A stretch of 62,951 nucleotides of DNA, filler included, from Reticulomyxa filosa (taxonomy: Eukaryota > Protista > Foraminifera): assembly GCA_000512085.1 (NCBI GenBank). It is 17 parts of 17 records of this genome, joined end to end, with 100 filler letters (N's around TTAATTAATTAA, not from the genome) between each part and the next. Parts side by side here need not be neighbours in the genome. Positions count along the whole stretch, not along the records: positions 4,733 to 8,724 come from ASPP01017542.1; 16 more parts are not named here. One strand, given 5' to 3'. This document shows, one piece after another, positions 1,431 to 62,951 of this stretch. Numbering within the stretch: the first letter of the stretch is position 1; the number at the start of each line of letters is the position of its first letter. The notes beneath the pieces were generated by a model that had not been told where the DNA came from, ran no database searches, and saw only the letters and a list, made by a program, of their open reading frames with translations. The position numbers were made by a program, and so were the translations under genes.

Positions 1431-1729
1431 TAATTAAGCATTATTTTTTTAAATATCAATTTTTTCGTCTTTATCTGTTTTCTGGCTGCCCGAAACGGAT
1501 TTACACAAAGCTTTTGTCTTTGATCTAATTAGATATACCAAAAATATGAGAAAACTTATTGTCTTTATTTAATAGATCATCAATATTTTTGCATCGACGC
1601 TTTTGTCATATATTTTTTGTTAATAATCATTAGTGTTTTCATCTTCATTCTATTTTGACAAACCCCTTATGGAAAGTGGCAAAAAAGTTCCAAGTATTTA
1701 ATCTTACGTCATTAACAAAGTCAAAAAAA

Positions 1730-3099
1730 ATGGGAAATCCAATTAGCAAAAATGTACCAATGGTAAGCTTCATTTTAATACTATCCTTCAGAAAGCTAAT
1801 TTTTTTAAGATTTGATTGTACGTGTTTGAGATAAACCTGTCAAAAGAAGAAGAGATCGAAGTAATTATTAAATATTGGATTCGAAAATTAAACATTAAGT
1901 TGGGATGGATCCATGAATTTGACATATTTGTTATCAATTATGTTAGTTTTGGTTTGTTTTTGGCTTTCATTCCGTGACAACAAAACGTCCAAATATGTAT
2001 TTCTTTATTAATCATAATCACTATTATTAATACAGGCAACTACTGTCTTCATGCTTGATACATTTTGTTCGTCATCTAAATTAGTAAAGACATTTATTGG
2101 ACATAACGATTTTGTGTATAGTATCGATTACGCAACATTTGATAGCTATCAGTTCATTTGTTCTGGATCAGAAGATAAAACAGTTCGTGTATGGGATGTA
2201 GAGACTAGCAAACAAATCAAAATATTGTATGGACATTTATCTTTTGTGTCTTGTGTAAAATTTTCACCATATCATTATCATAATAATCGGCGTAATGTTA
2301 TTTGTTCTTCATCGGCTGATAAAACCATTCGTTTTTGGGATGTCAAGAATAATCAACAATTTCAAATATTCAATGGACACACATGTCATGTCTATGGCAT
2401 TGAGTTCTCTCCATTTAATAGTGGTCGGTATTTGTGTTCTGGATCATATGATAATACTATTCGTTTATGGGATGTTAAAACATCCAACTTATTGCATGTT
2501 TTCAATGGACATAAATATGCTGTCTGTTGTGTAGATTTTTCACCATTGCAAAGCAGTACCAACAATAATGGAAGTAATAGCATCGGTGTGATTGGTGGCA
2601 ATGGATATACTATTTGTTCTGGATCATATGATAATACCATTCGTATATGGGATATTGAAACAGCCAAACAATTGCTTGTTTTCAAAGGACATGAACATCT
2701 AGTGCGGAGTGTAAAATATGGACCAAATGAAGTAAGAGGTAATGGTGGTTCAAATACAATCCTATCTGGATCAAGGGATAAAAGTGTTCGTTTGTGGGAT
2801 ATTCAATCTGGTAAGCAAATTCAAGTATTCAATAGACATGCACATACTGTTACGTGTGTTGCATACTCACCATTTATAGTAAATAATATCAAATTTGGTT
2901 GTGATTCAACTGTCATATGTTCTGGATCAAGTGATAAAACAATTCGTTTTTGGGATATTCGATCAAATAAAAAGGAGCTGTACGTGATCAATGGAGATGA
3001 TAAAGACGGTAGAGTACTGTGTCTTAAATTCCTGCAAATAAAAAGAAAACCAATCTGTGTTATAGTTCGGCCAAGGGTCCTATTCGTATTTGGGGATAG
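1730..3099 (+). CDS. WD40 repeat protein of an expanded family (exons 1730-1762, 1831-1941, 2036-3099; 1-nt frameshift in A-run near 3040-3050)
   Basis: Repeated GH...CSGSxDxTIRxWD units; GT-AG introns join in phase 0; the alternative frame at the 3' end gives NLCYSSAKGPIRIWG* ending at 3099. Confidence 0.9.
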
Positions 3100-3846
3100 T
3101 ATTACTTTTTAACCATTTTAGCGGATTACACGAAGTAGATTTTTACTATTAAATATTTCATTTGCAAATGTAGACTTATTCAATTCATTTCCTTTCAAAT
3201 TGTCAAATATCAACATTTTCATCACCAATTATTGCAATAAGCAGATTGAAAGAAAAAAATATATCTGTTTGCTATGATTTTTTTCTTTTTATTAAAAAAA
3301 TGTGACAAAAAATTAAGTTACATATCTCAAGTCCTCATTAAATTTTGATTGCTTTGTCCTATTTTGTTTGATGCAAATTTTACAAAGATAATATTATGTT
3401 AGTTGATGCAAAAAAAAAAAAAAAAATATGATTGTTTTAAAATCTAGACTACAAATAATTTTTGTTTACTTTTATTTCAGTATTACATCATGAAAGCTTT
3501 GTCAATTGAAATTCGCTTGTTCTTTTTTCAAGAAATGACAGAAAATTTAAGAGCAAATTTTGAACTTTTGCTCTCCTTGTTTTTTCACAGAAGAGTTCAT
3601 GTCTTTGCGACTCCTCTAGTTCTTAAAAAAAATGTATAAAGGCCAATAAAAATACACTATATTCAATTCATTTTTATCTGTAATGTTGTCAAAATCCTTA
3701 CTATAATTGAAATTCAACAGAAAAACCAACAAATGAGTCAATAAAAACAAAAACAGTCGTTTCATAAAAAGGAGTCTGAGGTTGTCCCTTTTTTGATACA
3801 AATCTTTTTTGAGAAAAAGACTCTACATCATAATATAGAAGAGCCA

Positions 3847-4548
3847 ATGTTCTTGAATGAAGAAGAAGAAGAAGAAGAAAAAAAACTGGAAACGTTTTCC
3901 AGTTCAAGTTGTTATAACAAAGAGTGGGTTTCGTTGGTCAACAAACCACAGAAACTGAACACGCTACTATGCTGTCTTTGCAATGAAATTGCAAATAATG
4001 CAATGGAATTACAATGTGACGAGCATGAGGATGCAGAACAAACATATTTGGTTGGAGAAGAATGCTTACAAAATTACTTGAAACAAAACAATGAAAAATG
4101 TCCAATTAAACAGCATGACCATTGCAAATTTTCGAAAAATAGAGTAGTAAGACAACAGACTTCAGAATTATTAGTGATTTGTCCTCGACAATATAACGCG
4201 CAAAAAAGTCAGTCGAATGAAGAGATAACACCAGGAGAGAAAGAAGACTACGAAAGCGAGTTAAGGAATAAATGTAATTTCAAAGGAAAAATAAAAGAAG
4301 TTGAAAATCATTTGAAATCATGCCAATTAATGACAATTCAACAAATTATTTCCTCGTTCAAGGAGTTGCAATTGCAATTCGAAATTGAAAAAGTGCAAGC
4401 AGTTTTGTCATTTATGTTTATTATCAATAAATGAACAAAAGACAAAACAACACACAAATTTATAAAAAAAAAAAAAAAAAAGGGAGAAAAAAATCGAACA
4501 GCTCAAAGAAAATGATAACAAACAGACGAAACAAATTCAACAACTTAA
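3847..4548 (+). CDS. RING-like/TRAF-type zinc-binding N-terminal region plus coiled coil; 3' end truncated by gap
   Basis: CCLCNEIANNAMELQC..H...GEECL..YL....KCPI, then ICPR...CNFKGKIKEVENHLKSC, as in the TRAF RING + zinc-finger arrangement; short coiled-coil exon ~4482-4548. Confidence 0.7.
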
Positions 4549-4632
4549 TGTAAGATTTTATTGTTTTGAAGATATTTTTGTCAATATGTTGGAACCGAAA
4601 GGGTTTGAATTCCGGGTTTTTAAAAACCCGGA

Positions 4633-4732
4633 NNNNNNNNNNNNNNNNNNNNNNNNNNNNNNNNNNNNNNNNNNNNTTAATTAATTAANNNNNNNNNNNN
4701 NNNNNNNNNNNNNNNNNNNNNNNNNNNNNNNN
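4633..4732. other. Artificial contig spacer, first of 16 (others start at 8725, 11995, 13292, 20657, 23915, 27799, 32516, 33628, 35758, 38114, 40659, 45196, 46296, 59253, 61697; each 100 nt)
   Basis: Identical N44-TTAATTAATTAA-N44 blocks; the 12-mer puts stops in all six frames. Confidence 0.99.
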
Positions 4733-4734
4733 TA

Positions 4735-7700
4735 GTGACATGTCGAAGTCATGTGTTAAATGATGAAGATATTAAACATGTTTTAATTGATTCAAAAGAC
4801 ATGATAACAACATCAATGATATATTTATGGCCTTTTTCAAAGGAACAAATGAATGGATATATTGATAAATTTGTAAAAATGAATAAAAAAAATAAAATGA
4901 ATGACAGTTTGGATTGGACAATACAACAATATGGAGAAACATTGAAAAATTATCCAAATTTAAATAAAATGATAGAAGAACCATTTTTACTTCGAATGAT
5001 ATTAACTGTATTACCGTCATTGATGAAACAACATGCAATTGGGACTAAAATATCAAAAGCGCAAGTATTCGAAGCATTTAATGAACAATGGATTGATATT
5101 CATGTGAAAAATATTTCAGATAAATTATCAGAATTAAGAATTCAAACAAATCCCAAAAAAATCAAATTTGCATTTCAACAATATTGTCAAGATTTAGGGT
5201 TTGAAATGTTTATTCAAGGAAATCAAGTTGCAACTGAAAATGATTATAAAGAATATGAAAATAATGATCTTTGGATTAAATTAGATTCAAAAATGGAGAC
5301 AGAAATTAAAAGTGAGGAGGAGAAAACCGAACCAAAGACACAGAGTTTTTGGGACAGATATTTTGGTAGTGGCAATGCGACTAAAGATGTATCAAAAAGG
5401 ACAGATGATGACATAACAACAAAAATAAATGACACTAATACATCATTGGATATGTGGAAAAAATATTTCAATGGCGATAGTATTGCCAAATATGTATTGA
5501 GAAGAGTTGGTGATAATAAATACCAGTTTTTACATAAATCATGTCAAGAATATTATGCTTCACAAAAAATTATATTTGACATTCTTTCATGGAAGCCGAA
5601 TATTGTTACTGTCGATAATCAACAATTTCAACAACAATTTGAAACACATGTTCAAAAATTATCTATCAATCATAAATTATTGAATGAAGAATTGGAAATT
5701 ATTCAATTTATTGCAGAGAGGATTCATGACAATAATCCGATATTTGTAAATTTAAAATCAAGATTATTTCGAATTATTGAATCATCAAAGAATAATGGAA
5801 ATACTAGCATTGCAGCAGCAAATGCAATCACTATACTCAATTCGGCTAATATTGATATGGACTATCAAAATTGGAATAACATTAAAATTCCTTATGCAAT
5901 TTTGGATCGTGCATTTCTTGAAGGAACCAATTTTAGTAATGCAAATTTGGATCATGTAAGTTTTCATCAAACTTGTTTAACCAAGGTCAATTTCACAAAT
6001 GCATCAATGAATGATATTTACTTTGGAGAATATCCATATTTAGAAGGACATACAGATCTTATATGGCGTATTAAATTTTCACCTGATGAAACAAAAATAA
6101 TATCTTATTCAAGTGATAAAACAATTCGAATATGGGATATATTATTAAGAAAGCAACTTCATGTACTAGAAGGACATTTAGATATAATAATTGTAGCTGA
6201 ATTTTCACATGATGGTTCCAAAATTGTGTCATGCTCACGGGATAATACTGTTCGAATATGGGATGTATTATTAGGTACACAAATTAAACTATTGGAAGGA
6301 CATTCAGATTTTGTGAATGCAGTAGATATTTCATCAGATGATTCTAAAATTGTATCTTGTTCATCGGACAATACTATTCGAATATGGGATATGTCGTCTG
6401 GAAAACAACTTCATCTATTGGAAAAACATTCAGAAACTGTGAGCTCAGTAAAATTTTTACCAGATGATTCTAAAATTGTTTCATGTTCATATGATAGCAG
6501 CATTCGAATATGGGATGTATATTCTGGAACACAACTTCTATTATTAGAAGGACATAAACGTGGAGTATTTGGAATACAATTCATATCGAACGGATCAAAG
6601 GTTATATCATATTCGTGGGATAAAACTATTCGAATATGGGATGCATTAACAGGTCAACAACTTCAATTATTGGAAGGACATACCAATGACATATATGGAA
6701 TTCAATTATCATCAGACGATTCAAAAATTTTATCATATTCAACGGATAAAACAATTCGAATATGGGATTTGTTATCTGGAAAACAGCTACAAGTTCTCGA
6801 AAATCCAAGTATTGTAAATACGGCAAGATTTTCATTTGATGATTCCAGAATTGTATCTGGTTCAGATGATGGTACAATTCGATTATGGAATGTATCATCT
6901 GGAAAACAAATTCAAGTATTAGAAGGACATTCAAGATATGTATCCAATGTGGAATTCTTTCCAAAAGCGTTCAAAATTTTATCATGTTCAGATGATTATA
7001 CAATTCGAATATGGGATATATCTTTAGAAAGAAAAATTCAAGCAACAGAAGAATATTTGGATATTGTAACAACAGTAGCATTTTCTCCTGATGGTTCTAA
7101 AATTGTGTCAGGTTCTTTAGACAAAACAGTACGATTGTGGGATGTACAATCAGGAAGACAAATTTATGTATTTGAAGGCCATTCAGATCGTGTAAGTGAA
7201 GTATTATTTTCTCCAGATGGCTCTAAAATTGTATCTTATTCATGGGATAAAACCATTCGGATATGGGATGTATTATCAGGAAAACAACTTCAATTATTGG
7301 AAGGACACTCAAGTTGGGTGAACAAAGTACATTTTTCACCAGATGGCTCCAAACTTGTGTCATGTTCAAATGATGATACAATCCGAATATGGATTGTATC
7401 ATCAGGAAAACAAATTAAATTGGGTAGACATTTTTCTATTACAACTGAAGCACAATTTTTGCCAGATGGAAATAAAATTATATCTTGTTCATTTGATCGT
7501 ACAATTAGACTATGGGATGCATTATCTAGCACAGTAATTCAGACTTTTAAAGGACATACAGATTACATAAATGGGATACAGCTTTCGCCAGATAGTTCTA
7601 AATGTGTATCATATTCACGGGATGAAACAATTCGGGTATGGGATATATCATCTGGAAAACAACTTTTTCTATTTGAAGGAAATAAAGATGTAACTGATAT

Positions 7701-8187
7701 ACAATTTTCTCCAGATGGTACCACAATTGTGTCTTGTTCAAAAGATAGGACAATTCGATTGTGGAATATGTTAACTGGAAAACAAATTCAAGTATTAAAT
7801 GGACATTCTGATGCAATTCAAGGAATAAAGTTTTCATTAGATGGCTCTAAAATTATTTCATATTCAGAGGATGGGACTATTCGAATATGGGATATATCTT
7901 CAGGAAAACAAATTCAAGTAATAGAAGGACATAACGGAGCTATTAATTGCATACACTTATCACCCGATGGCTCAAAACTAGTATCATGTTCAATAGATAA
8001 AACAATTCGATTATGGGGTAGTAACAATGGTAAAATTGTTGATGTCACTGAGAATAGTGTAGTGCACTATATTTGGAAAGTAGGTAATCAAAGTGGTTTA
8101 TCAATGAAAGGTAGTATTTGGAAAAACACAAAGGGTTTGGAAGATGAACAAAAATTGCTTGTGAAACAACGTGGTGGAATATTTTGA
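4735..8187 (+). CDS. NACHT (C-terminal half) - pentapeptide repeat - 16x WD40 STAND/NLR-like protein; 5' truncated by gap
   Basis: TCR sensor-1, LWPFSKEQM, PFLLRMI, winged-helix FLHKSCQEY; AAANAITILN then pentapeptides (AILDRAFLEGTNFSNANLD); 16 WD40 units counted; C-cap GLEDEQKLLVKQRGG. Intronless. Confidence 0.9.
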   Translation: MTCRSHVLNDEDIKHVLIDSKDMITTSMIYLWPFSKEQMNGYIDKFVKMNKKNKMNDSLDWTIQQYGETLKNYPNLNKMIEEPFLLRMILTVLPSLMKQHAIGTKISKAQVFEAFNEQWIDIHVKNISDKLSELRIQTNPKKIKFAFQQYCQDLGFEMFIQGNQVATENDYKEYENNDLWIKLDSKMETEIKSEEEKTEPKTQSFWDRYFGSGNATKDVSKRTDDDITTKINDTNTSLDMWKKYFNGDSIAKYVLRRVGDNKYQFLHKSCQEYYASQKIIFDILSWKPNIVTVDNQQFQQQFETHVQKLSINHKLLNEELEIIQFIAERIHDNNPIFVNLKSRLFRIIESSKNNGNTSIAAANAITILNSANIDMDYQNWNNIKIPYAILDRAFLEGTNFSNANLDHVSFHQTCLTKVNFTNASMNDIYFGEYPYLEGHTDLIWRIKFSPDETKIISYSSDKTIRIWDILLRKQLHVLEGHLDIIIVAEFSHDGSKIVSCSRDNTVRIWDVLLGTQIKLLEGHSDFVNAVDISSDDSKIVSCSSDNTIRIWDMSSGKQLHLLEKHSETVSSVKFLPDDSKIVSCSYDSSIRIWDVYSGTQLLLLEGHKRGVFGIQFISNGSKVISYSWDKTIRIWDALTGQQLQLLEGHTNDIYGIQLSSDDSKILSYSTDKTIRIWDLLSGKQLQVLENPSIVNTARFSFDDSRIVSGSDDGTIRLWNVSSGKQIQVLEGHSRYVSNVEFFPKAFKILSCSDDYTIRIWDISLERKIQATEEYLDIVTTVAFSPDGSKIVSGSLDKTVRLWDVQSGRQIYVFEGHSDRVSEVLFSPDGSKIVSYSWDKTIRIWDVLSGKQLQLLEGHSSWVNKVHFSPDGSKLVSCSNDDTIRIWIVSSGKQIKLGRHFSITTEAQFLPDGNKIISCSFDRTIRLWDALSSTVIQTFKGHTDYINGIQLSPDSSKCVSYSRDETIRVWDISSGKQLFLFEGNKDVTDIQFSPDGTTIVSCSKDRTIRLWNMLTGKQIQVLNGHSDAIQGIKFSLDGSKIISYSEDGTIRIWDISSGKQIQVIEGHNGAINCIHLSPDGSKLVSCSIDKTIRLWGSNNGKIVDVTENSVVHYIWKVGNQSGLSMKGSIWKNTKGLEDEQKLLVKQRGGIF

Positions 8188-8824: not shown

Positions 8825-9731
8825 TGAAGAAAAAATGTTTTAGAGATAAAACCAAAGTGTATTTGTTGCACTTTCGTGAATGAAAAATTTGTCTGACACA
8901 AAATGTTTTGTGACAAGGTACGTAACATCAAATAATTGTTTGTTTTTTTTTTGATGAAAAAGCCAACAACAGACTGAGATCGGTGATGGAGTGTTTGGTT
9001 AGTACTGAATTGACATTTTTTGTTGTAAAGTTTTTTGTTAGTATTTTATTTCTGAAATAGGTGTGTTTTTGTTTGATAAGATAGCAAAATTTGATAATGG
9101 TATTGCGAAAACGCGTTGCTTCTTTTTTTGTACAGTTGTATTGTTTGGGATTTTAAAGTGAATTTTTGTTTAATAAAACAATCGACACTGACGTCAAATT
9201 GTTTTTACTGTGAAGAAAAAATGTTTTAGAGATAAAACCAAAGTGTATTTGTTGTACTTTTGTGAATGAAAAAATTGGCTGACACAAAGTGTTTTGTGAG
9301 ATAGTTACGTAACACCAAATAATTGTTTGTTTTTTTTTTGATGAAAAAGCCACCCACAGACTGAGATCGGTGATGGAGTGTTTGGTTAGACTGAATTGAC
9401 ATTTTTTGTTGTAAAGTTTTTTGTTAGTATTTTATTTCTGAAATAAGTGTGTTTTTGTTTGATAGGATAGCAAAATTTGATAATGTATTTACTAGCAACG
9501 CGTTCATAAAAATTAGTGTAACGCGTTTTCGCAATACCAAAGGTTCAATTCTCGAATTTGAAGTTTTTAACATTATTGCTTCTTTTTTTGTAATTTGATT
9601 TTACGTGACTAAAATAAAGCATTCTCTTTAAGAAAGCTAGTTACAGTAAAAACAATTTGACGTCAATGTCGATTGTTTTATTGAACAAAAATTCCTTTAA
9701 AATCCCAAACAATACAACTGTACAAAAAAAG
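8825..9731. repeat. Composite repeat: direct duplication (8825-9099 / 9211-9486) with inverted repeats (9098-9117 / 9520-9539 and 9122-9211 / 9643-9731)
   Basis: Read directly: near-identical ~275-nt direct copies, a perfect 20-bp inverted pair and a ~90-bp near-perfect inverted pair. Confidence 0.9.
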
Positions 9732-11539: not shown

Positions 11540-11650
11540 ATGGGTAATCGAACTGCAACACAAAAACATTCTGAAAAACAAACCAAGCAAAGCGAACATC
11601 TTATTACCTCATTTCAAACTTTGAAGAACTTGCACAATCGACTTGAACAC
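11540..11650 (+). pseudogene. Truncated 5' fragment of a Kelch-like family gene
   Basis: MGNRTATQ...ITSFQTLKNL matches the start of the Kelch paralogue at 62725 (MGNQNTAFFQILKNL), including the start context. Confidence 0.6.
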
Positions 11651-11994
11651 GCTTGCATCTCCACATATACCTTATGTTTTGGTACATATAATTTAATATT
11701 ATGAAACCGATGATGTGTTTTTGATTGTTTTTCGAAAAAGTCTTTATCTTCTGAAACAACCAAATTAAATTTGTCTGCGTTTTTTATTACACATAAAATA
11801 GTAAATCTCCTAATATCAAATACTCGATTAAAATCTTCATTGTAATCAGATTTAATTTTTTCAGATAATCGTTTCATATCTTTGACTTCCTGCGGTTTTG
11901 CTACTGTAATCGAACACCAAATCTAAAATCTCTTGACTTTTCATTGCATCTTTACTTCGAGCAATTAAATCTTCTAAACTTGTTGCGTGTTGAA
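11650..11994 (-). pseudogene. RelA/SpoT-like nucleotidyltransferase domain fragment (frameshifted, truncated)
   Basis: VKDMKRLSEKIKSDYNEDFNRVFDIRRFTI ... HHRFHNIKLYVPKHKVYVEMQA fits the K..R..EK..DY..D..R..DI.R and vEiQ motifs; upstream frame shifts near 11925. Confidence 0.6.
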
Positions 11995-13218: not shown

Positions 13219-13391
13219 GATTTACTTTGATTTGATTATTTATCAAAAAAAATTCCCATAAACCAATAGAGATTGATTTTTTTTTTTTTTTNNNNNNNNN
13301 NNNNNNNNNNNNNNNNNNNNNNNNNNNNNNNNNNNTTAATTAATTAANNNNNNNNNNNNNNNNNNNNNNNNNNNNNNNNNNNNNNNNNNNN

Positions 13392-13396
13392 AAAAT

Positions 13397-13435
<39 letters not shown>

Positions 13436-15873
13436 ACGAAACAAATTGACTAAGAATTTGTTATTCATCATATCCATGACACGCTTTTCACTAACAATGT
13501 GCTTTGCCAAGTCCAAGTCGACTACTTGAGATTTCTTGATCGCCTTCAAAGCGTACGATTTGTTGGTGCTGGGATCCACAACCAAAGTGACCAAGCCAAA
13601 GCCACCTTTTCCTAAAATGCCAATGTGCTTCAGCTCTTTCAAACCGCACACTGCTTTCTTCGCTTGTGTTCGCATCTCGGCGTTGGTTTTCTGCTGTTCG
13701 ACGAGAGTTTGTCGCTTCTGTTCCAACGCCTTGTCTTCGTCGATGATCTCTTTGCTCCTTTTGTACGAGCTGATTTTGTCGTCGATTATGTCGACCACTG
13801 GTCCTAACAGCGCAAAGAAATCCTTCGATTCCAGTTCCCATAACACGCATTTCTCACCTATTATGACATTTCCACACACTCTTTTAAAATGCCTGCACAA
13901 CAAATCAAATATGTAATATATACATATTATACATAAGTATGATATGTATATATGTATATGACGTTGAACTTGTCACAACGATAGTGGCAGCTCTTGGTTC
14001 ACTCGTTCGCAATGCCCTTTCTCCAAACATGCCGTACTCGGTCAATTCGCCACTTTCGCCATTTTTTTTGCTCCAGCGAAGAGTGCCCTTCACAACGATA
14101 ATTAAACATATATGTATATGTATACGTATATGTATATGCATATATGTTTGATATGTACATTGTGCATTATCTCTCTTCCTACCCTCCCTTTTGGCTCAAA
14201 ACAAAAACAAAACAGCTCGAATGACGTAAAATCTTTCGCCGACATCCCCTTCGCCGAAAATGATTGCGTCTTTCTCATATTGTTTCGGTTGAAATGCGTC
14301 TGAGATCCGTTCCAATTCGGATTGCAGCAAAGGTTGGAACAACGGTACTTTTTTCAGAAACTCCAAGTACTCTGCATGTTGGCGACGATGGTAGCGTTTT
14401 CTCACACGCAAAAACTCGCTTTGATGGATTTCCCAGGCTGAAGATTTCCCTGTCGCCTTTGTTGTTATAATATACATAATATATATATATATATATATAA
14501 TTTTAAGCCAAAAAAAGAATGAACCAAAAAAAAAAAAAAATCATTTTGAAATTAAGTTTAAGACAAAGCACAAAAGTCGTTCTCCTCCAACAACCAGTTT
14601 GCAAAATGAGGGATACAGTGATATTTTCATACTTGCATTATTTTCAAATTACATTTCAAAACAAAAAAAAAACAATGTAACATAATAAATAATAAACAAT
14701 AAATAATAATAATAATAATAATAAATATAATATATAATATATGTACATATATTATATATTATATTTATTTATTTATTATTATTAGATACCATCTACATAC
14801 CACAATGCTTGCTTGTCTGGGCTGGTTTTTGAGTAAAGCCAACTCGCCAAAGGTTCCTCCTTTGGTGTATTCCTTCACTTTGACGCCGTCCACGAGACAA
14901 TCAAAGTGGCCACTTTCGACGACGTAGAAGCAATAGTCAATGTCCCCTTGACGAATGCAATGCTGATCTTTGTCATACTCCTTTAATTCAAAGCGGCTAA
15001 TGATCTCTCGCTTCAATGCCAATTCGTACTCACTAAACAATGCATGGTTTGCAACTTGTTCTAACAACCATTGCATTTGTTCTACCGTCAAAGTTTTCTT
15101 TTCATCCTCCTAAAACTTTTTTTTTTTTTTTTTTGGGTCCCCCCTCCTTCTTTCACCTCCCCTCCCCCTTTTTTTTTTTTTAAGTAATAAAAATAAATCA
15201 ACAAAAATTAATTACATCTTTGGAATCAGTTGATTCTTTCAATGGCGTTAAAAAAGCGTGTCGATGGGCTTGTCGATTGGCAAAGCGGATTTGTGGATTG
15301 CCGTGCAACGATTTTTCAAACAGGTGCCGGCTGCAAACTAAACACTTCGTTGTTTCTATGGCTATCAGATTCGCATTGCGACGAGTGTTTTGCAATAATG
15401 CTTGTTCTCCTGCATAATCTCCTTGTCGCAATGTCGCCAATTTACCACCTTGCTCCGTGGATACTTCAACTGATCCCTTTTTTTTTTTTTATACGTTTCG
15501 CTTTTTTTTTTTTTTATGAAGGGAGAGTTATAAAAAGGGGCTCTCACCCAAAAGACCTTTTTTTTTAGAAAAAAAAATGTACTCTCTTTTCTACTTGATT
15601 TTTGTTGCAACAAAAAATTAACTGAAACAATAATGTAAAAGGAGTCACCCTCTTCTCCTTCTTTCATTATGTAATCCCCCTTCCGAAATTCTTGACTTTT
15701 CAATCCATCTGCTAACTTTTCTCGTTCCGATTTCCCTAAACCAGCTAGCAGAGGAACGATTCCAGGATTTTTTTCACGTCCAATTGGTCACCTGTGTTTG
15801 ACCAAGCAAGGCAAGTGGAATTATGTTGTTTTAAGGTTAAACAAAATTATTAAATAAGCTTACTTTTTGACAT
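13392..15873 (-). CDS. cGMP-dependent protein kinase (PKG-like), three cNMP-binding domains plus start of kinase; 3' end truncated by gap
   Basis: Phosphate-binding cassettes GEQALLQNTRRNA, FGELALLKNQPRQAS and FGERALRTSEPRAAT; kinase LGKGGFGLV...YALKAIKK...IVSEKRVM; start exon MSK at 15873; multi-exon. Confidence 0.9.
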
Positions 15874-19584: not shown

Positions 19585-20656
19585 TTATCCCCATATTCGA
19601 ATGGTTCTATCATAAGAGCACGAAACAATCGCTTCACCGTCGGGGGAGAAGTGAACCCCAATGACATCGTCTGTATGCAAGTCCAGTATTTGCACTTGCT
19701 GACCGGAGGGTATATGCCACACGCGGATGGTTCGATCAGCGGAGCAAGACACGATATGCATTGCATCGAGTGAGAACCTGACACTAGAGACCCATTTGAC
19801 ATGTCCATGAAAGACGCGCAACGCTGCTCCAGACTCGACGCTCCACAGCCGAATGGTCGAATCCATCGCGCACGAAACAACGGTACGTCCGTCGGGAGAA
19901 AACACAGCGTCTCGCACAAAGGCGGTATGTCCCTCCATCTTTTGGAGCTCTTTTCCGGACGAGATCTCCCACACTCGAATGGTCTTGTCATCGGAACACG
20001 ACACAATGCGGTCGCCATTTGACGAAAAGTGAACCTTCCGAACTGATCGCAAGTGTCCTTCGATTACCTTGATTTGATTTGCCAAGGCCACATCCCACAA
20101 TCGAATGGTTTTATCTTTGGAGCAAGACGCAAGCATCGAGCCATTGGGCGAACATTGGAGTCCCTTGATGAGACGTTCGTGACCCTTTAACGTGGTTATA
20201 ACTTGGTTGGTCGAAACGTCCCAAATGAAAATCATTTCACCTGAAAACGAAAATAGAAATCGTCCATCCGGTGAAAAATGCACGCCCCTCATCCACGCCG
20301 AGTCTTTACTCCAAACTTTTAGCTCCTTTCCAGATGTCACCTCCCACAATCGAATCGTTTCGTCCGCCGAACAAGACGCAATCGTCAATCCGTCTGGTGA
20401 AAACTGCGCATCGTCCACTGCACGCGAATGGCCTCTCAATACGTTCATTTGTCGATAATATTTGGCCTTTTTTTTTTTTTTTTGTATACGTGTATGTCAT
20501 GATCCCTTTCTTCACTCTTGTCCTTACTTTCATGAAAATAAAAAATTGTTAGACGAAACATATTTTGTAATGAGTTTGTCAAAATCATGGATCCATCCCC
20601 AATTAATTGCTGCCGTTTGAATCCATGCACGAATAATTGTTTGTACATTTTTTCGA
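19585..20656 (-). CDS. WD40 repeat protein (exons 20656-20560, 20466-19585); 5' truncated by gap
   Basis: Seven GH...FSPDG...SCSxDxTIRxW units; upstream exon carries IIRAWIQTAAINWGWIHDFDKLITKY. Confidence 0.9.
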
Positions 20657-24014: not shown

Positions 24015-25964
24015 CCTAAATGACCACGAAATTGACATACTTTTAGATTTGTTTCCAAGTCCCATACAGCAATTGTTTCATCATCAGAAGCGGAAACGAT
24101 TCTTTCACCATTTTGTAAAAATTGCACATCATTTACCTCAGAAAAATGTCTTCCTAGCTCTTTTTTCTCTTCTCCAGTGTGTACATCCCATATCCGGATG
24201 GATGTATCCAATGAGGCAGACACAATAATGAGACCGTTTGGAGAAAATTGTGCTCTCTCTACGCTTCGCGAATGTCCTTTTAGAGTTTTTATTTCTTGTC
24301 CTAATTCCAAATCCCATAATCGAATAGTTGTATCAACCGAACATGATACAATCATTTTACCATCTGGTGAAAATTGTGCATCATTAACAGAATCTGAATG
24401 TCCTTTCAACGTTTGAATTACTTTTTGTAATTTGACATCCCATATTCGAATTGTCTTTCCACAAGCTGCAGCAACGTTGGTTCGATCAGGTGAAAATTTC
24501 ACACTTTTTAAACCTAAACGCTCGCGTAATTCTTTGAATGGCTTAAAATACTTCATCTATTTTTGAATGTAATTTTGATAATCATTACTTAAATTTTTTA
24601 AAAAAAAACCAAAGCATACCAAAATATATCGTGAAATAATTATGCTGAGATCGTCAATCCATCCTTTCTTAATAGACAATGAACGAACCCAGTGCTCAAG
24701 TACTGTTGCAATTTGTCTTTGTTTCTATTTTGTTTTAATACAATAATCACAACCAAATACTTAAAAAAAAAAAAAAAAAGGAGTAACTCAACTTTCAACT
24801 TTCTTATTTGAAATCCAGGATGCAGTCCTTTCAAATTTTTTTTACTCTTTTTATGTCTTCAACCTCTCTTTCTCCTTCCTCTATCCTCTTTTCCTCTGCA
24901 ATCCATTGTTTTTCTATTACTGTTTCCTCTTTCATAAACTCACTCACATTAATTCTCATGTGGCATGAGATAGCATCTTTTGCGTCATTTCCTCCTCCAA
25001 TTATATGCACATGTGTCTTATCCATACTCAATACTCCGACACAACGGCCCAATCGAGTGGGTAAATCATGTTGAATGCGTATCCATTTATTTTCTTTGAT
25101 TGAATACTTATGTATTGCTTTAGAATAACCAGTGTCAGTGCCACCATGTCCACCAAAAAATAGAATAACGTCATTGACACACAAATATGCGTATTGATTC
25201 AATGACCGGATTGTTGAACAAACTCTTATGTTTTGAAATCGAAATTTGTTGTTGTTTTCATTATATTCAATGCTTAATCCAGCATCTTTACAAAATAACA
25301 ACATTTCATTCTTATTTTTATTTTTCGGCATTATTTCCAGGTCATTGTCCGTTTTGGACACAAAGCAATGATGCCATATCCATTCATCAATTGGCAATGT
25401 ATTTTGTGTTACATATCGATATGTCTTTAAATTGAATACATCAATTTTCTTTGGAGGATAAGTAATAAACAATAAATGATTCTTACTTCCACCAACTATT
25501 GCACGGACACCATTGTAATCGCTTTCATCTTTACCAATGCAAACTGGTTTATTATACATATCAGTAAGGGGAATCCATTGGTTAAATAGAGTTTTTTCTT
25601 CAGGTGATTTTGGATTATACCAAACACTAATATATTTCATTACCATTGTATGTTTTTTCTGAGTTTGATATTGTCCACCAAGAGACAATAAAGTGATAAT
25701 ATCTGCAGAACTCTCGTTCACTAATTTAACCAAGGAATGCCCAACTAATTCGACATTATTTGGAAAAGAACAGATATACTTGTACTGATTTTTGGTTATA
25801 TGATAAGAATAACAGTTTCTTGTATGTGCACCTCCACAAATGAGAATTTCATCTTTGTTGGCCACACATTGACCAAGATAAAGCGGAACAGGCAAAGAGG
25901 CCAAAGCCTTAAAAGGGATTGCATTTGCTCTCATTTCTTGTTCAAATATGTCAATGGTAGTCAT
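24015..25964 (-). CDS. Kelch-like propeller - coiled coil - linker - WD40 fusion (exons 25964-24793 with a 1-nt shift at ~24835, 24724-24620, 24556-<24015)
   Basis: Kelch GG motifs (ILICGG, AIVGG, ILFFGG, HIIGG); phase-0 GT-AG introns 24792-24725 and 24619-24557 lead into the WD40 ORF. Confidence 0.8.
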
Positions 25965-26750: not shown

Positions 26751-27727
26751 ATGGGTGTAAATGGTTCAAAATCCGAAGCAAATGAAAATGCGGCAAATGG
26801 AACTGAAGCTAAAAGATCGCGTCGCTTTCGAAACAAACAAAAACACCCCCGAAGCGGGACCGTGAGCTCATATACTTTTAAAGAGAAGAAGAAGGCCATC
26901 GATAAAACTGGTTGAGCAAAAGACACAAGCGCGTGACAAAAGAAGTCCATCCTTTAGTTTTGAAGGGGAAAAAAGATATATGTATTGATGCTAGAGAGAA
27001 TGGTTGAAACAAAGAAAGGAATGATGTGATTTGTATAGCAACGGACGATTTGGAGACACGCGAAGCGACGACGCCAGTGACAGCGGTGGTATTGCAATCG
27101 CCAAGTGACATGACAAAATCATCCAGCATCGCATCATCCTCAACCAGTTTGGCAGGGGGTTGGATTGGAATGTCTCGTGCGGTAAGCGACGGCGCGGTGC
27201 GTGATGATATGGCATTACGTGGAAATATGAGCGAAGATGAAAAAGTGATCACAACAACAACGGTCATGGATAGCATTAGTCATCATCACTCTCATTACCA
27301 TCACCATAATCATCATCATCATCATCATCATCATTATCGAGGAATGACAGAAGAAGCTCATTCTTATTATTATCCGCCTTTTCACGAGTTCACCGAACAA
27401 TTGAAAATGCCAGACAATGTGCTACTGCACATGCTGTCGTTCACTCGACCCTTGGATCAGTTGTACTTGTGTCAAGTGTGTAAACAATTGAGACATGTCA
27501 TTTATCACAAGAAGCTCATTCCTGGATTGAAGACTCTGAAATCCGTTGAATACTATTACGACAAATACAGCTGCTTTTACGACAAACGAATGAAAACTTT
27601 CAAATTCAGTTTGTGTGACAGCTTGGACATTGACGCAAAAAAAAGATTGAAGCGCATGCTTGATAAAAAGAGATTGGTTTTATTCCTTATTTTTCAAACT
27701 CAAATGAGAAAATGTCATTTCAGTTAA
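26751..27727 (+). CDS. F-box protein with N-myristoylation-like start and poly-His tract; 3' end probably lost in gap
   Basis: MGVNGS start at 26751; LKMPDNVLLHMLSFTRPLDQLYLCQVCKQLRHVI is an F-box; (CAT)n His run at ~27280-27335. Confidence 0.75.
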
Positions 27728-49203: not shown

Positions 49204-49316
49204 GTTTAGTTGTTTTTTTTTTTTTTTTTTTTATTAAAAAAAAAAAATTTGTACTTTGTAATCATTTCTTTAATAAAAGCCACTTTTTTTTTTTTTATTT
49301 TGTTTGTTGGAAATAG

Positions 49317-49920
49317 ACTGACGGTGTGCAATTCCAGTAGTGTGACTGTGAAAGAACGCAATGATGCAGAGCTGTTCTATCTCAAATGGGCTGCTGCACA
49401 ATGGTCCAAAGCTAAGGCAGAAACCGAGCAGCAAAACAACAACAACAACAACATCTCCTCTGACGATAGTGCTGCGCAAGAGACCACGCCGACAGAAGCC
49501 GCTAAAAAAGAAAATGGCGATGGCGATGGCGGTGATGTCGATTGTGAAGATGATGCGATTCAGCGCATGTTCCCACGTTATAAGGAATTGAAACTAAAAT
49601 GGGGGGACCAAAAAATCAAAAAAACTTTTACTCAAAATATTGATACTGTCGCTGTCACTATTCAATCAATGGACCCCAAATCAATCACTTCGCAACTCGT
49701 TGAGAAAAATCTACCCTTGAGTTTGACTGTTGGACAGTTGAAAATGCTCTGCAAACGTCTATTCCAGTTATCGCCAAAGTACCAACGGATCATGGTTCGA
49801 AATTCTGGGGACATGTTCCCAGATGACATGCCCGATGATATGCAGACATTAACGTATTATGGGGTCAAAGACAGAGCGTTTATTTTAATGCAATCCACTG
49901 ATTTCACCACTACTGATTAA
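49317..49920 (+). CDS. TBCE: Tubulin-folding cofactor E (or E-like) C-terminal exon: LRR cap plus ubiquitin-like domain
   Basis: LTVCNSSSVTVKERNDAELFYLK, FPRYKELKLKWG, KNLPLSLTVGQLKMLCKRLF, DDMQTLTYYGVKD match the TBCE C-terminus. Confidence 0.75.
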
Positions 49921-51130: not shown

Positions 51131-52146
51131 ATGTACAACCGACTTAAGATAAATGTTCGGCGAAATATACAACCTTTGCAGTTCGTCACTGTCCGTTGAC
51201 AATAACCTTTGCCGAAAAAGGAACAGCTTACACACCTGCTCGCCTTACTTTAAATTTTTTTTTGAATAGATTATTTCCATCTTGGGTATTTTCATCACAA
51301 TCATTTTATGCCTACCATTTCACCATGAAATGTATTCCTCATCAAGTTATTTTTTTCTTGTCTTTTGAATTTAATAAATCTTCTTATCGTACTGTGTCAC
51401 AGATTCGAATGGATTTCCTCGTCGATCCGTGCCCATGCAATTAATTTGCATTTCAGGTCAATACATTGTCAAATATATTTTTTTTCCTCTAATTTATTGT
51501 TGCTTTTTAAAAAGACACGCACAATGGACATGAACATTTGACCAATACATTGAAACAATTGTACGATCCCAATAAAACTAATGTCTTGATTCATGCTGGT
51601 GATATGACGAATTCTGGAAAAGCTCACGAATTGGAAAAGTTCAATCAATGGTTGTCTCACTTACCATTTGAACACAAATTGATTATTTCCGGAAACATGG
51701 ATGGAATTGGATTAGATCGAAAAAGTTTCACTGGACATCAGTTGTTCACATCTGCCCTCTACTTAGAAAACGAAAGTGTAAACATCGATGGGATCAATTT
51801 TTTTGGTACTCCATATTCTCCTAAATTTGTTGGAGGGTTTCAATTGTTGAACACTGAGCAAACAATTGACACATGGAAGAAAATACCAGCAAACACAAAC
51901 GTATTAATTGTTCATGGACCACCTTTTGGGATTTTGGATAAAACAAGCAGTGGTACTAGTGTGGGTTGTCCAGTACTATATGATATTGTCGTGAATAACA
52001 TAAAACCCAAAGTTGTTATCTTTGGTCACGTTCACTACTCTTTTGGTCAAATGATACACAAAGGAATTCGTTTTTTCAATGTTGCGCAATTTGATGGAAT
52101 TCATGGAATAAATCCATTTGTGAAACCCGTTGTTATAGAGCTATAG
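51131..52146 (+). CDS. Calcineurin-like metallophosphoesterase (MPPED1/2-like) with probable N-terminal signal anchor; 5' exon uncertain
   Basis: ICIS|DTH split by intron 51457-51514; IHAGD, GNMD, HGPP and FGHVH motifs. Confidence 0.85.
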
Positions 52147-57261: not shown

Positions 57262-58258
57262 TCATAAATCTTTTTTCAACAGTTGACAAGCAGCTTGCGC
57301 AACGTTAATCGAGCGTACATTTTCGTCGACGAATATCCACGTGTTATGTGTGCGATCGAAATAGAACAGCTGCTGATAATAGTTGATGGCATAGATGGCT
57401 CCATCTTCCCAAAAATCACAAGCGATCTGGACAAAGTCGTTGGTACTTTCATCCAACATTTCGAGTTTTCCCTCTTCCCATTTCATTATCAATCCACTAT
57501 CAGCCTTTATCAAGTACAGCTCATTGTCGTCTTCGCTTGCGCTTATCCATTGAAAGCTTTCCTCGAATGGCAGTTTGAGCCATTCTTGACTGTTGGGCAA
57601 AAACTTCCACACGTGCCCAACCTCATCTCTGCCAAACAATGTTTTTTTGCTTGAAGTTAGTTGAACTACTTTGCCTAAGACATTTAAAAAAAAAAAAGAC
57701 TGGAACACGTAAGTGCAAGAGGGGGGGGATATACTTTTTTAAACCAAAAAAAAAAAAAAAAAAAGGGGTCACTAGTGAACCTTCTGTTTTTGATTTGATA
57801 TGAAGAATTTGACTTTCAACAGTCACAAGCTTTTTTGGAGGGGACACCATTTTAGTCCATTTCGATGCTTGTGATGGCTCTTTTTGACATTGCTCGTCAC
57901 ACTTATATATTTGACCATTTTGGTCGACTGCGTAGACAGCTTCATTTACATTGGTTGTTATTGACACAAACAATTGGAATGTGTTTTTCCATTTGTCTCC
58001 ACAATGGGCTAAATCCAAACCGTTTCGAAAATACAGTTTGTTTTGCTGGTCAAGAATCCACATTTGGTTGCTTGTCCAGTGCATCGTTACCGGATTTAGA
58101 CTTGGCTTTGGGGTTGGGCACAAAGTGTACATTTTGAGCCGCTCTAAGTCCACACAACCAAGACTCCCGTCTGCTGTAACAACAAGGGTACCAGCTTGGC
58201 ACACATTTCCAAAGTACAAAAGACTCAACAGGGACAAATAAAATACAATTGATAGCAT
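57262..58258 (-). CDS. Secreted tectonin-like beta-propeller (lectin-like)
   Basis: Signal peptide MLSIVFYLSLL; repeats such as MWILDQQNKLYFRNGL...KW, VYAVDQNGQIY, IYAINYYQQLFY...W; 3' end uncertain. Confidence 0.65.
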
Positions 58259-58643
58259 GATGATATTTGTGGCGTTCCCAGAACCAGGAAAATTTTTTTT
58301 TTTACACTTCTTGCGTTTTAATTTTACACAATAAAAAAAATTAATGAATGGTAAATCAAAAAGTGCAAAATAATTTCGCAGTTGCTCATGAAGCAAAATA
58401 TTATTGCACTGTTTGAAGTAGTAAAAGAATAAGTTTTCCCCAAACCTTTTTTTTGCAGCGGGGTGTAATATTTCTTATTGCTCTAGTTTAATAATTGCTT
58501 TGCTTCTCGAACGTGCAAAGAAAGCAACAATCAAGTCAACTAATCCTAATTAACCCCTCCATTAATCAAACGACCCAATCAATCAAGTAAACAAATAAAC
58601 CAACTCAACCAACTCAACCAATCAGCAAACAAACCAACAAAAA

Positions 58644-61796: not shown

Positions 61797-62725
61797 AGTT
61801 TTTCATGTGTATTGACATGCTTTGTTTGGCATTAAATCCTCCAATAATATGTACATACGTGTTGTCTTCACTCAATAATACAATGGACTAGGTAATGCGT
61901 TTTGAAATGTCATCCATTTGTTTTCATCGAATTGAATACTTGCCGCACTATCACTCCATCCACCAAAGGACAAGATGACATCCATTGATGCACACATACA
62001 TGCATATTTATGTAATGGTGCAATATCATCACAAAACAGCTAATTTTATGAAATTGAAAAGTGTTTTTTATCTTCATCATATTCAATTGATAATCCTGTC
62101 TTTTCACAAAACAACAACATTTGATAATGTTGTTTATTTTCTTTTTCATTTGTTTTTCCATCAATTTTTTGTCCTTGTCCATTTTCTGAAGTTGATACAA
62201 AGCAATGAAAATTGAATATCATTACTGTCATGTTTAACAAATTGAAATTTATTTAAATCAAACACAAATATAATTTGGATAAGTGATAAATAATAAATTA
62301 TTGTTTCTTCCACCAATCATTGCACGTACTCCTTCATAATAATGATATTGATCTGCGAAAGGAATCCATTCATTGAAATTCTTTAAGTCATTTGATTTGT
62401 TTGATATATTATCCCAAACACTTCCATATTTCATCGCCAATGTATGTTTAGGATATCCATCAAAAGACAAAAACATGATTTAATTGTTGTCTTTGCTGTC
62501 GTTATCTACTACTTTCACTACACAGTGCTCATTTAATTCAACATCGCTTAGATACTTACAGATAAACTTGTATTCGTTTTTGAGTGTATGATAAGAATAA
62601 CAAGTTCTTTTATTTGCACCTCCATAAAGGGGGAGTTCGTGTTTGTGTAGCACACATTGAGATTCAGAAAGTGAAGTGGGTAAATTCTTCAGTATTTGAA
62701 AAAAAGCTGTATTTTGATTACCCAT
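61797..62725 (-). pseudogene. Kelch-like family pseudogene (paralogue of 24831-25964)
   Basis: Same motifs (QCVLHKHEL..GG, CYSYHTLKNEYKFIC, VRAMIGG.NNNLLFITY, MLLFCEKTGLSIEY) broken across four or more frames. Confidence 0.85.
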
Positions 62726-62951
62726 GTTGTTAATGTTTCTGAATAAAACAACCAATCGATCACATCTCTTTGAAACATGAATAATGACAGAATATTCAAT
62801 TATTGTATTGAGATTATTTTACAAACTATTCAATGTAGCTGTTGCAACTATTCAAAACATAAACGCATTATTTGCAATTTGATTGCAAAGATAGAAAAAT
62901 AATGCGTTTAGTTTTTGCTGTTTGTTAATGAACAAAATCCAAGTCTTTTGG

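Follow-up and report, generated by a model that had tools for sequence, protein, structure and literature searches.

Receptors in which an effector, a NACHT domain and WD40 repeats follow one another have been described in fungi, and a family with the same three-part plan is represented by an open reading frame (ORF) at 4735-8187 (+) in a 62,951-nucleotide stretch of 17 contigs of the foraminiferan Reticulomyxa filosa, joined through 100-base spacers (hereafter the window). The fungal examples are RelA_SpoT-NACHT-WD40 NOD-like receptors (NLRs), as in Gaeumannomyces graminis (Dyrka et al., 2014, PMC4986451), and RelA_SpoT NLRs are a minor fungal class without a cluster of its own in a later survey (10.1101/2022.03.16.484565). 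In contrast, R. filosa has one effector type on all 51 long paralogues and adds a Cys-rich domain, a pentapeptide helix and a cap, the comparison with the fungal receptors being one of domain plan. NACHT-pentapeptide-WD40 proteins are known in Mortierellomycota and Mycoavidus (10.1101/2021.12.02.471044; 10.1101/2022.03.16.484565), and those of Mortierellomycota and Mycoavidus cysteinexigens share the NACHT domain, an AANAITIL-like helix, pentapeptide repeats, the WD40 array and the cap, but are 23-33% identical to the R. filosa proteins in the NACHT region and form a separate clade. HET-E/HET-D/NWD proteins of Podospora likewise combine NACHT with WD40 repeats of the HET-E type, in which positive selection acts on codons 7, 9, 25 and 27, at the top face of the propeller, with 8 and 26 conserved (PMC1805685). 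The window gene has the same pattern of selection and conservation, whereas in the R. filosa family no HET domain was seen, and the repeats are 55% alike and show no concerted evolution. Apaf-1, too, has a STAND ATPase followed by tandem WD40 propellers, yet it is a single conserved gene with an NB-ARC domain and a CARD, whereas the R. filosa family has a NACHT domain, an enzyme effector and a large, diversifying membership.

On the enzyme side, Tas1/Apk1, Apk2, SaEAS and the toxSAS proteins share with the R. filosa effector the SYNTH fold (Z 12.0-12.1) and the DxxR/K/N/ExQ layout (PMC10083569, PMC12691689, PMC11782079), and CapRel is likewise a synthetase fused to a sensor (PMC11782079). The R. 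filosa enzyme differs from Tas1, Apk and toxSAS in being eukaryotic and STAND-fused, and 44 of 52 paralogues have His at the acceptor-Tyr position. Comparison of the proteins suggests that the family functions as enzyme-effector NLRs and lies outside both the HET-E family and the Mycoavidus/Mortierellaceae clade. No account of this rhizarian family was found in the literature, where subscription papers and bioRxiv supplements may list these proteins; the word "Reticulomyxa" is absent from six supplements of PMC12691689.

A 5'-Truncated Member of the Family

The frame is uninterrupted over 1,150 codons up to its stop codon. It begins mid-codon, 2 bases past a 100-base contig spacer (4633-4732), and opens at the NACHT sensor-1 strand, with Walker A and Walker B outside the window; Pfam NACHT gave no match on the fragment. 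The two bases preceding it fit an Ile codon, Ile being present at this site in 45 of 50 paralogues, and its onset maps ~680-770 residues into the full-length protein, as measured on 10 complete paralogues. Since the frame sets in mid-codon at a contig edge and within NACHT, only the 3' two-thirds of this gene, which belongs to an expanded foraminiferan NLR family, are in the window. The ORF is collinear with residues 719-1847 of the full-length paralogue P0007 (71% over 1,161 columns), and hence no intron lies in 4735-8187. An earlier interpretation made from the DNA alone (the sequence-only reading) had called the gene intronless, which is borne out for this 3' part alone; open stretches of 303-364 codons occur in other WD40 genes of the window, too. 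The frame, its parts and a related fragment are:

4633-4732, no strand: contig spacer (44 N, a 12-base all-frame stop linker, 44 N); the gene's 5' ~680-770 codons are not in the window
4735-8187, + strand: 5'-truncated member of the Cys-rich/synthetase/NACHT/pentapeptide/WD40 family (open frame, homologue comparison)
4735-5160, + strand: last part of the NACHT nucleotide-binding domain, with the sensor-1 strand TCR, then helical domain 1, which bears the PF motif (hidden Markov model (HMM) residues 1-142, 240 bits; alignment)
5161-5847, + strand: winged-helix domain and helical domain 2 (domain names inferred from the usual NACHT layout)
~5245-5448, + strand: disordered insert in the winged-helix domain (predicted local distance difference test (pLDDT) <50 at residues 171-238 of the model)
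5521-5556, + strand: FLHKS..EY motif of the winged-helix domain
5812-5838, + strand: AAANAITIL, at the end of helical domain 2
5848-6030, + strand: pentapeptide-repeat beta-helix of ~11 five-residue units (PF00805; five-residue periodic bridges in the model)
6040-8022, + strand: 16 WD40 repeats, predicted tandem beta-propellers, with positions 7, 9, 25 and 27 hypervariable (Pfam, alignment, model)
8068-8187, + strand: C-terminal cap consisting of the last strand, ~three pentapeptide-like units and a helix (model; motif in 45 of 77 bacterial ORFs)
8134-8178, + strand: GL...LLxQRG motif of the cap
11635-11992, - strand: decayed fragment of a paralogue synthetase region, with a frameshift and an internal deletion, ending after the ExQ motif (tblastn, 63-77% to paralogues)

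The PF, FLHKS..EY and AANA motifs can be aligned throughout the long paralogues and the bacterial relatives, and the helical, winged-helix and second helical domains that follow the NTPase are helical in the model. Pfam PF00400 marks 16 stretches, corresponding to 16 WD40 repeats, which are spaced by 42 aa in 12 of the 15 intervals and by 41 aa in the other 3, and the repeat-core motif occurs 15 times, compared with at most 0 in 1,000 codon shuffles. Both the NLR-like nature of the receptor and the individual motifs named in the sequence-only reading are borne out; the window holds 16 WD40 repeats together with NACHT helical and winged-helix motifs, AAANAITIL, the cap and a pentapeptide match (PF00805, E 1.4e-7), and Walker A is found in 61 of 68 paralogues.

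The structural model of the fragment (pLDDT 84.4) contains the helical domains (pLDDT 66-95 from residue 31 on, the insert excepted), the disordered insert, a five-residue periodic solenoid and the propellers. The periodic bridges of the solenoid recur at residues 1118-1135, and we infer that the cap may close the beta-helix, so that the propellers would be an insertion within it. A Foldseek search with the fragment returned a repetitive double propeller and Apaf-1, the latter among the top matches and with the longest alignments (E 7e-39, ~900 columns).

A RelA/SpoT-Fold Effector in the Paralogues

A search with residues 1-435 of the fragment returned 75 proteins, of which 68 are R. filosa paralogues, 2 are from Mortierellaceae and 5 are others; the gene is multicopy. 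The window protein itself has no exact counterpart among the database proteins. The paralogues are 49-80% identical to the window copy over long matches; they are clusters at 90% identity and the copy number rests on database proteins, therefore some of the 68 may be alleles or split pieces. Full-length members have ~1,700-1,900 residues and consist of a short helical N-terminus, a Cys-rich domain, a RelA/SpoT-like domain, a helical linker and NACHT with Walker A and B, followed by the part seen in the window. Wherever a paralogue extends at least 330 residues upstream of Walker A (51 of 51 cases), it has both the synthetase and the Cys-rich domain, a count that is a presence test only, because the HMMs were built from these same paralogues; this N-terminal alarmone-synthetase effector had been missed by the sequence-only reading. 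The P-loop, which is absent from the window owing to the gap, is present in the family, with a strict Walker A in 61 of the 68 paralogues and 4 of the remaining 7 beginning downstream of it, and Pfam NACHT is over the cut-off in 8 of 10 paralogue proteins scanned. The window copy very probably has the same 5' part as the complete paralogues.

The synthetase is the best-conserved region of the family proteins, with a mean pairwise identity of 78%, compared with 63% for the NACHT core, 52% for WD40 and 37% for the disordered insert. Nine donor-site and catalytic positions (donor basic residues, catalytic Asp, ExQ) are 96-100% conserved among 51-52 paralogues, namely, in P0074 numbering, K169 (52/52), R173 (50/51), K177 (51/51), D191 (52/52), R194 (52/52), K226 (50/52), N241 (49/51), E254 (51/52) and Q256 (51/52). 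The DxxR, K, N, ExQ layout of the Tas1/Apk (p)ppApp synthetases is present in the paralogues, and the layout together with a DYxGD motif follows Tas1, SaEAS and a phage protein described below. The D-R-K-N-E spacing is 3/32/15/13, compared with 3/30/15/13 for the active-site residues of SaEAS, which are paired with those of Apk1/Tas1 in PMC12691689; paralogue residues were mapped to that paper by spacing and to the phage relative by alignment. In a PDB sequence search Tas1 was the best of 2 matches, a weak one (E 0.17). In an AlphaFold model of P0074 (pLDDT 85.8), residues 130-320 match Rel, SAS1/2, Tas1 and CapRel at Z 12.0-13.9 (root-mean-square deviation 2.9-3.8 over 131-170 residues; Atlas template-modelling score 0.58-0.74) and residues 400-641 match NLRP3/NOD2 at Z 13.8-14.4; no fold name was obtained for the Cys-rich domain, which was not folded alone. 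The modelled synthetase fold does not reveal the product of the enzyme, and the sequence layout leans to the Tas1/Apk branch. The family enzyme is quite probably active, and for an active enzyme we see about an even chance that the product would be (pp)pApp, the alternatives being (p)ppGpp and pyrophosphorylated tRNA.

The phage relative is encoded at 1586-3851 of locus L080 by a gene that is annotated as hypothetical and lies after the portal gene; its Tas1-like synthetase aligns with that of the paralogues at 33% over 136 columns (E 9e-5, probability 59.5). The gene is followed by a small ORF and then by an HD hydrolase gene, an arrangement like that of the Apk2-Aph1 loci (PMC10083569), though no MuF domain was detected. 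Viral contigs yielded no relative of the window fragment and none of the synthetase, metagenome contigs no relative of the synthetase, a plasmid search no relative and PADLOC nothing of note; a search with the synthetase alignment found none either, but says little because it was limited to proteins of 2,049-5,000 residues.

Two further R. filosa proteins carry the effector. P0082 is without NACHT and is predicted to be a single-pass membrane protein; it has a repeat ectodomain and, towards the cytoplasm (residues 599-885), ends in the same Cys-rich and synthetase module, making it a possible surface receptor with the same effector. P0081 scores ~2x a single synthetase match and may contain a duplicated effector module.

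Variation and Selection in the WD40 Sensor

Variability by repeat position was determined for 28 proteins that are nearly complete in propeller region and cap, namely the window copy and 27 of the 64 paralogues P0003-P0066. Identity is 0.07 at position 7, 0.09 at 25, 0.15 at 9, 0.17 at 6, 0.28 at 10 and 0.32 at 27, with 0.33-0.91 for all remaining positions; the window copy is 12% identical to its closest paralogue at positions 7 and 25, and that paralogue is 81% identical at the other repeat positions. In a codon model of the 16 repeats of the window gene, omega (the ratio of nonsynonymous to synonymous rates) is 2.24 at positions 7/9/25/27 and 0.28 at the rest (p 0.0003). Over settings with any of four frequency models, with star trees and with trees inferred after removal of the columns of these four positions, omega was 2.0-3.2 at the four positions in 8 of 8 cases (p 3e-7 to 0.005), with 0.15-0.40 at other positions and 0.86 in an exposed control class, in agreement with the diversifying selection at surface repeat positions that the sequence-only reading had proposed.

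The same reading described 16 homogeneous 42-aa repeats, in which the number of repeats and, for 12 of 15 intervals, the length are right and the homogeneity is overstated. Repeat cores within the window gene have a mean identity of 55% (amino acids) and 70% (nucleotides), with maxima of 77% and 79%, whereas ~85% is reported for HET-E-type repeats (PMC4986451). The nearest neighbour of a repeat is in the same gene for only 17 of 394 repeats, compared with 223 at the same index in another gene and 154 at another index, and identity is 0.55 within a gene and 0.62 to the same index in other genes. Unlike those of HET-E, the repeats of this family are therefore not homogenised. P0022 and P0025 are only 62% identical to the window copy over residues 1-165 but cluster with it for each propeller half (FastTree support 0.99 and 1.0); from such alignments the paralogues appear to exchange larger blocks and to be mosaics.

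Relatives Outside R. filosa

A profile search gave 3,028 representatives at E up to 0.001. From the best 80 of 330 bacterial loci confirmed in species genomes, 79 were kept, comprising 67 from Mycoavidus, 3 from Myxococcota, 2 from Francisellaceae, 1 from Legionellaceae, 5 from other Pseudomonadota and 1 from Bryobacteraceae. None of these best 79 loci has the synthetase or the Cys-rich domain, and a synthetase query matched 0 of 5 bacterial genomes with this NACHT, these genomes being incomplete; no cyanobacterial locus is among the 79, a pattern-limited result that excludes nothing. The AANAITIL-like helix is found in 35 and the GL..LL.QR cap in 45 of 77 bacterial ORFs, and the sequence-only reading was right in expecting the architecture and cap to be common to Mycoavidus and Mortierellaceae. 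The NACHT-pentapeptide-WD40-cap design is common to Mycoavidus, Mortierellaceae and other, likely host-associated bacteria.

In an unrooted 57-row mixture-model tree of the NACHT-to-pentapeptide region, for which paralogues and Mycoavidus were each reduced to 9 rows, all R. filosa rows, the window copy among them, form one clade (100/99), in which the window copy is nearest to P0007 and P0003 on a short terminal branch (0.06). This clade adjoins a protein of a Bacteroidota metagenome-assembled genome and metagenome proteins (90/80, not resolved) and is separated by starred branches from the Mycoavidus/Mortierellaceae clade. The protist clade is not sister to the latter, and a forced union of the two was rejected in an approximately unbiased (AU) test (p 0.000153; LG+G4, 31 of the 57 rows, with representatives of each clade kept), in which the tested grouping was taken from the earlier hypothesis, though the tree had been seen beforehand. 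An exchange of NACHT with bacteria, in one direction or the other, is likely on this unrooted topology. Repeated transfer of NACHT from intracellular bacteria has been proposed, and alarmone synthetases are listed among bacterial NACHT effectors (10.1101/2022.07.19.500537).

The nearest outside NACHT relatives, P0103, P0113 and P0124, have hydrophobic leaders and varied domains (ankyrin, synthetase, caspase), as would be expected for exported proteins of host-associated bacteria; the near neighbour P0103 combines a hydrophobic leader, ankyrins and a related synthetase with this NACHT. P0101, P0152 and locus L089 have the synthetase or the linker as well, at an identity of 35-50% or as judged by motif, which suggests that the lineage occurs in other organisms.

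A Probable Non-Self Sensor Coupled to a Synthetase, and Alternatives

We consider it probable that the window ORF is the 3' part of a synthetase-NLR family member that acts as a non-self sensor, switching on its enzyme and thereby arresting or killing the affected part of the cell. The fragment status, the family architecture, the catalytic residues and the selection at positions 7, 9, 25 and 27 come directly from the data; the remaining steps follow established STAND biology or are inferred. In STAND proteins such as Apaf-1, ligand binds to the propellers, ADP is exchanged for ATP and the NTPase domains oligomerise. Similarly, the closed, ADP-bound NACHT of the R. filosa receptor would restrain the synthetase until a foreign molecule, presumably from intracellular bacteria, viruses or non-self fusion partners, bound the variable propeller faces, whereupon nucleotide exchange and NACHT oligomerisation would free the synthetase. 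The enzyme would then transfer pyrophosphate from ATP to a nucleotide or to the 3' end of tRNA and the affected cytoplasm would be halted; with (pp)pApp as the most likely product, ATP would be drained and the affected cell part arrested or killed. R. filosa is a multinucleate, network-forming amoeba, in which such a local shut-off could be useful. A more far-reaching proposal, which we advance only tentatively, is that more than 60 receptors, with parts common with intracellular bacteria, make up a repertoire for innate immunity or allorecognition and are all wired to one Tas1-like (p)ppApp synthetase in a eukaryotic alarmone suicide signalling, and jointly that their WD40 repeats diversify at four positions as in fungi, via whole-gene duplication and block recombination.

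Several observations weigh against this account. (p)ppGpp synthetases score at least as high as Tas1 in the fold comparison (Rel 13.9, SAS2 13.8, Tas1 12.1), and Pfam RelA_SpoT is under its 27-bit cut-off in 6 of 10 proteins and absent in the other 4, although P0081 passes it (30.2 bits). WD40 proteins of many kinds have variable top-face residues. The codon test concerns the 16 repeats of one gene in an implementation of our own and assumes a tree that inter-repeat conversion would break; in it positions 7 and 25 are singly significant and 9 and 27 are not, and the protein variability was known before the position class was fixed from PMC1805685. The acceptor-stacking Tyr is His in 44 of the 52 paralogues, with Tyr in 7 and Thr in 1, and a Y-to-F change at this site impairs FaRel2 (PMC11782079). 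Lastly, the window copy may be dead or differently capped, because its 5' end is unseen, the paralogues are mosaic and a decayed fragment lies on the next contig.

The alternative that survives best, though we think it unlikely, is that the same receptor drives an enzyme making (p)ppGpp or another non-toxic signal, directed at resident bacteria or a host pathway, without killing. Such a signal has been proposed for the fungal RelA_SpoT NLRs (PMC4986451) and would suit the altered acceptor loop and the fold scores of Rel and SAS1/2, which are as high as that of Tas1, but against it speak the DxxR, K, N, ExQ layout and the DYxGD motif, in which the effector resembles Tas1, SaEAS and the phage protein, and the tight coupling to a STAND switch would rather suit a toxic output.

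Somewhat less probable still is that the window copy is a pseudogene or a 5'-truncated, effector-less sensor in a birth-and-death family. The decayed fragment at 11635-11992, which sits across the spacer from the contig of the window copy, and conserved-block deletions in some predicted paralogues are compatible with this, as is the missing 5' end; yet 1,150 codons remain free of stops and frameshifts in DNA of 30% GC, the contig sets in mid-codon with two bases that fit the Ile occurring at this place in 45 of 50 paralogues, and the terminal branch is short (0.06).

That the synthetase is a pseudo-enzyme or a nucleotide-binding adaptor, with signalling through the Cys-rich or the N-terminal helical domain, for example to the ubiquitin machinery, appears improbable: rotifers and Mucoromycota indeed have look-alikes of the Cys-rich domain in fusions with ubiquitin-like, RING and ADP-ribosyltransferase domains, and the Tyr-to-His change in the acceptor loop would fit a lost activity, but the nine donor-site and catalytic positions are 96-100% conserved in what is the most conserved domain of the protein. 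An origin of the contig from a bacterial endosymbiont in the assembly, to which 3.4 kb without an intron, the bacterial or bacterium-like nearest outside relatives and a window chained from contigs with artificial spacers might point, is very improbable given 68 paralogues named as R. filosa proteins, the eukaryotic look-alikes of the Cys-rich domain, the absence of synthetase and Cys-rich domain from the best 79 bacterial loci, the fusion of both to a membrane protein in P0082, and a gene region with 17% GC at third codon positions and an AT-rich non-coding flank.

If the non-self sensor does make (pp)pApp or modify tRNA, a eukaryotic NLR would act through the chemistry of toxins that serve in bacterial conflict, a toxin-like output so far only conjectured for the fungal RelA_SpoT NLRs. 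Protist immune receptors are little described, and the family is a concrete, testable candidate in Rhizaria, in which a diversifying sensor is joined to a small enzyme domain, and the latter could be expressed and assayed alone. It would represent a sensor-coupled enzyme NLR expanded in Rhizaria, the RelA_SpoT-NACHT-WD40 and NACHT-pentapeptide-WD40 plans being already known elsewhere. That fungi and this separate lineage have the same four WD40 positions under selection suggests convergence in how a recognition surface is built, and the NACHT tree supports repeated exchange of this module between eukaryotes and bacteria likely living inside them.

Other Features of the Window

A Cys/His-rich ORF followed by a coiled-coil-like exon lies at 3745-4550 (+), and a related, apparently broken copy is found at the window end (61797-62951, -); the ORF looks TRAF/RING-like, though it has no Pfam match. 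Its part at 3745-4434, left of the spacer, was considered as the missing 5' part of the receptor gene and rejected, as it has no match in the 76 other proteins of the collection, among them all NACHT paralogues, and continues into its own exon and intron, hence being a separate gene. Non-coding-looking DNA at 8825-9485 and 9122-9731 forms a ~386-base direct duplication with blocks 94-98% identical, and the same region has a 45-67-base inverted repeat with copies 431-520 bases apart. Further WD40 genes of other subfamilies are located at 2018-3112 (+), 19585-20496 (-) and 24015-24550 (-), two of them with open stretches of >300 codons. Ordinary eukaryotic genes, of types that include sulfatase, protein kinase, Kelch, F-box, ubiquitin-like, metallophosphoesterase and tectonin-like, are found at 45-815, 13340-13972, 24831-25964, 27008-27727, 49210-49920, 51511-52146 and 57623-58474.

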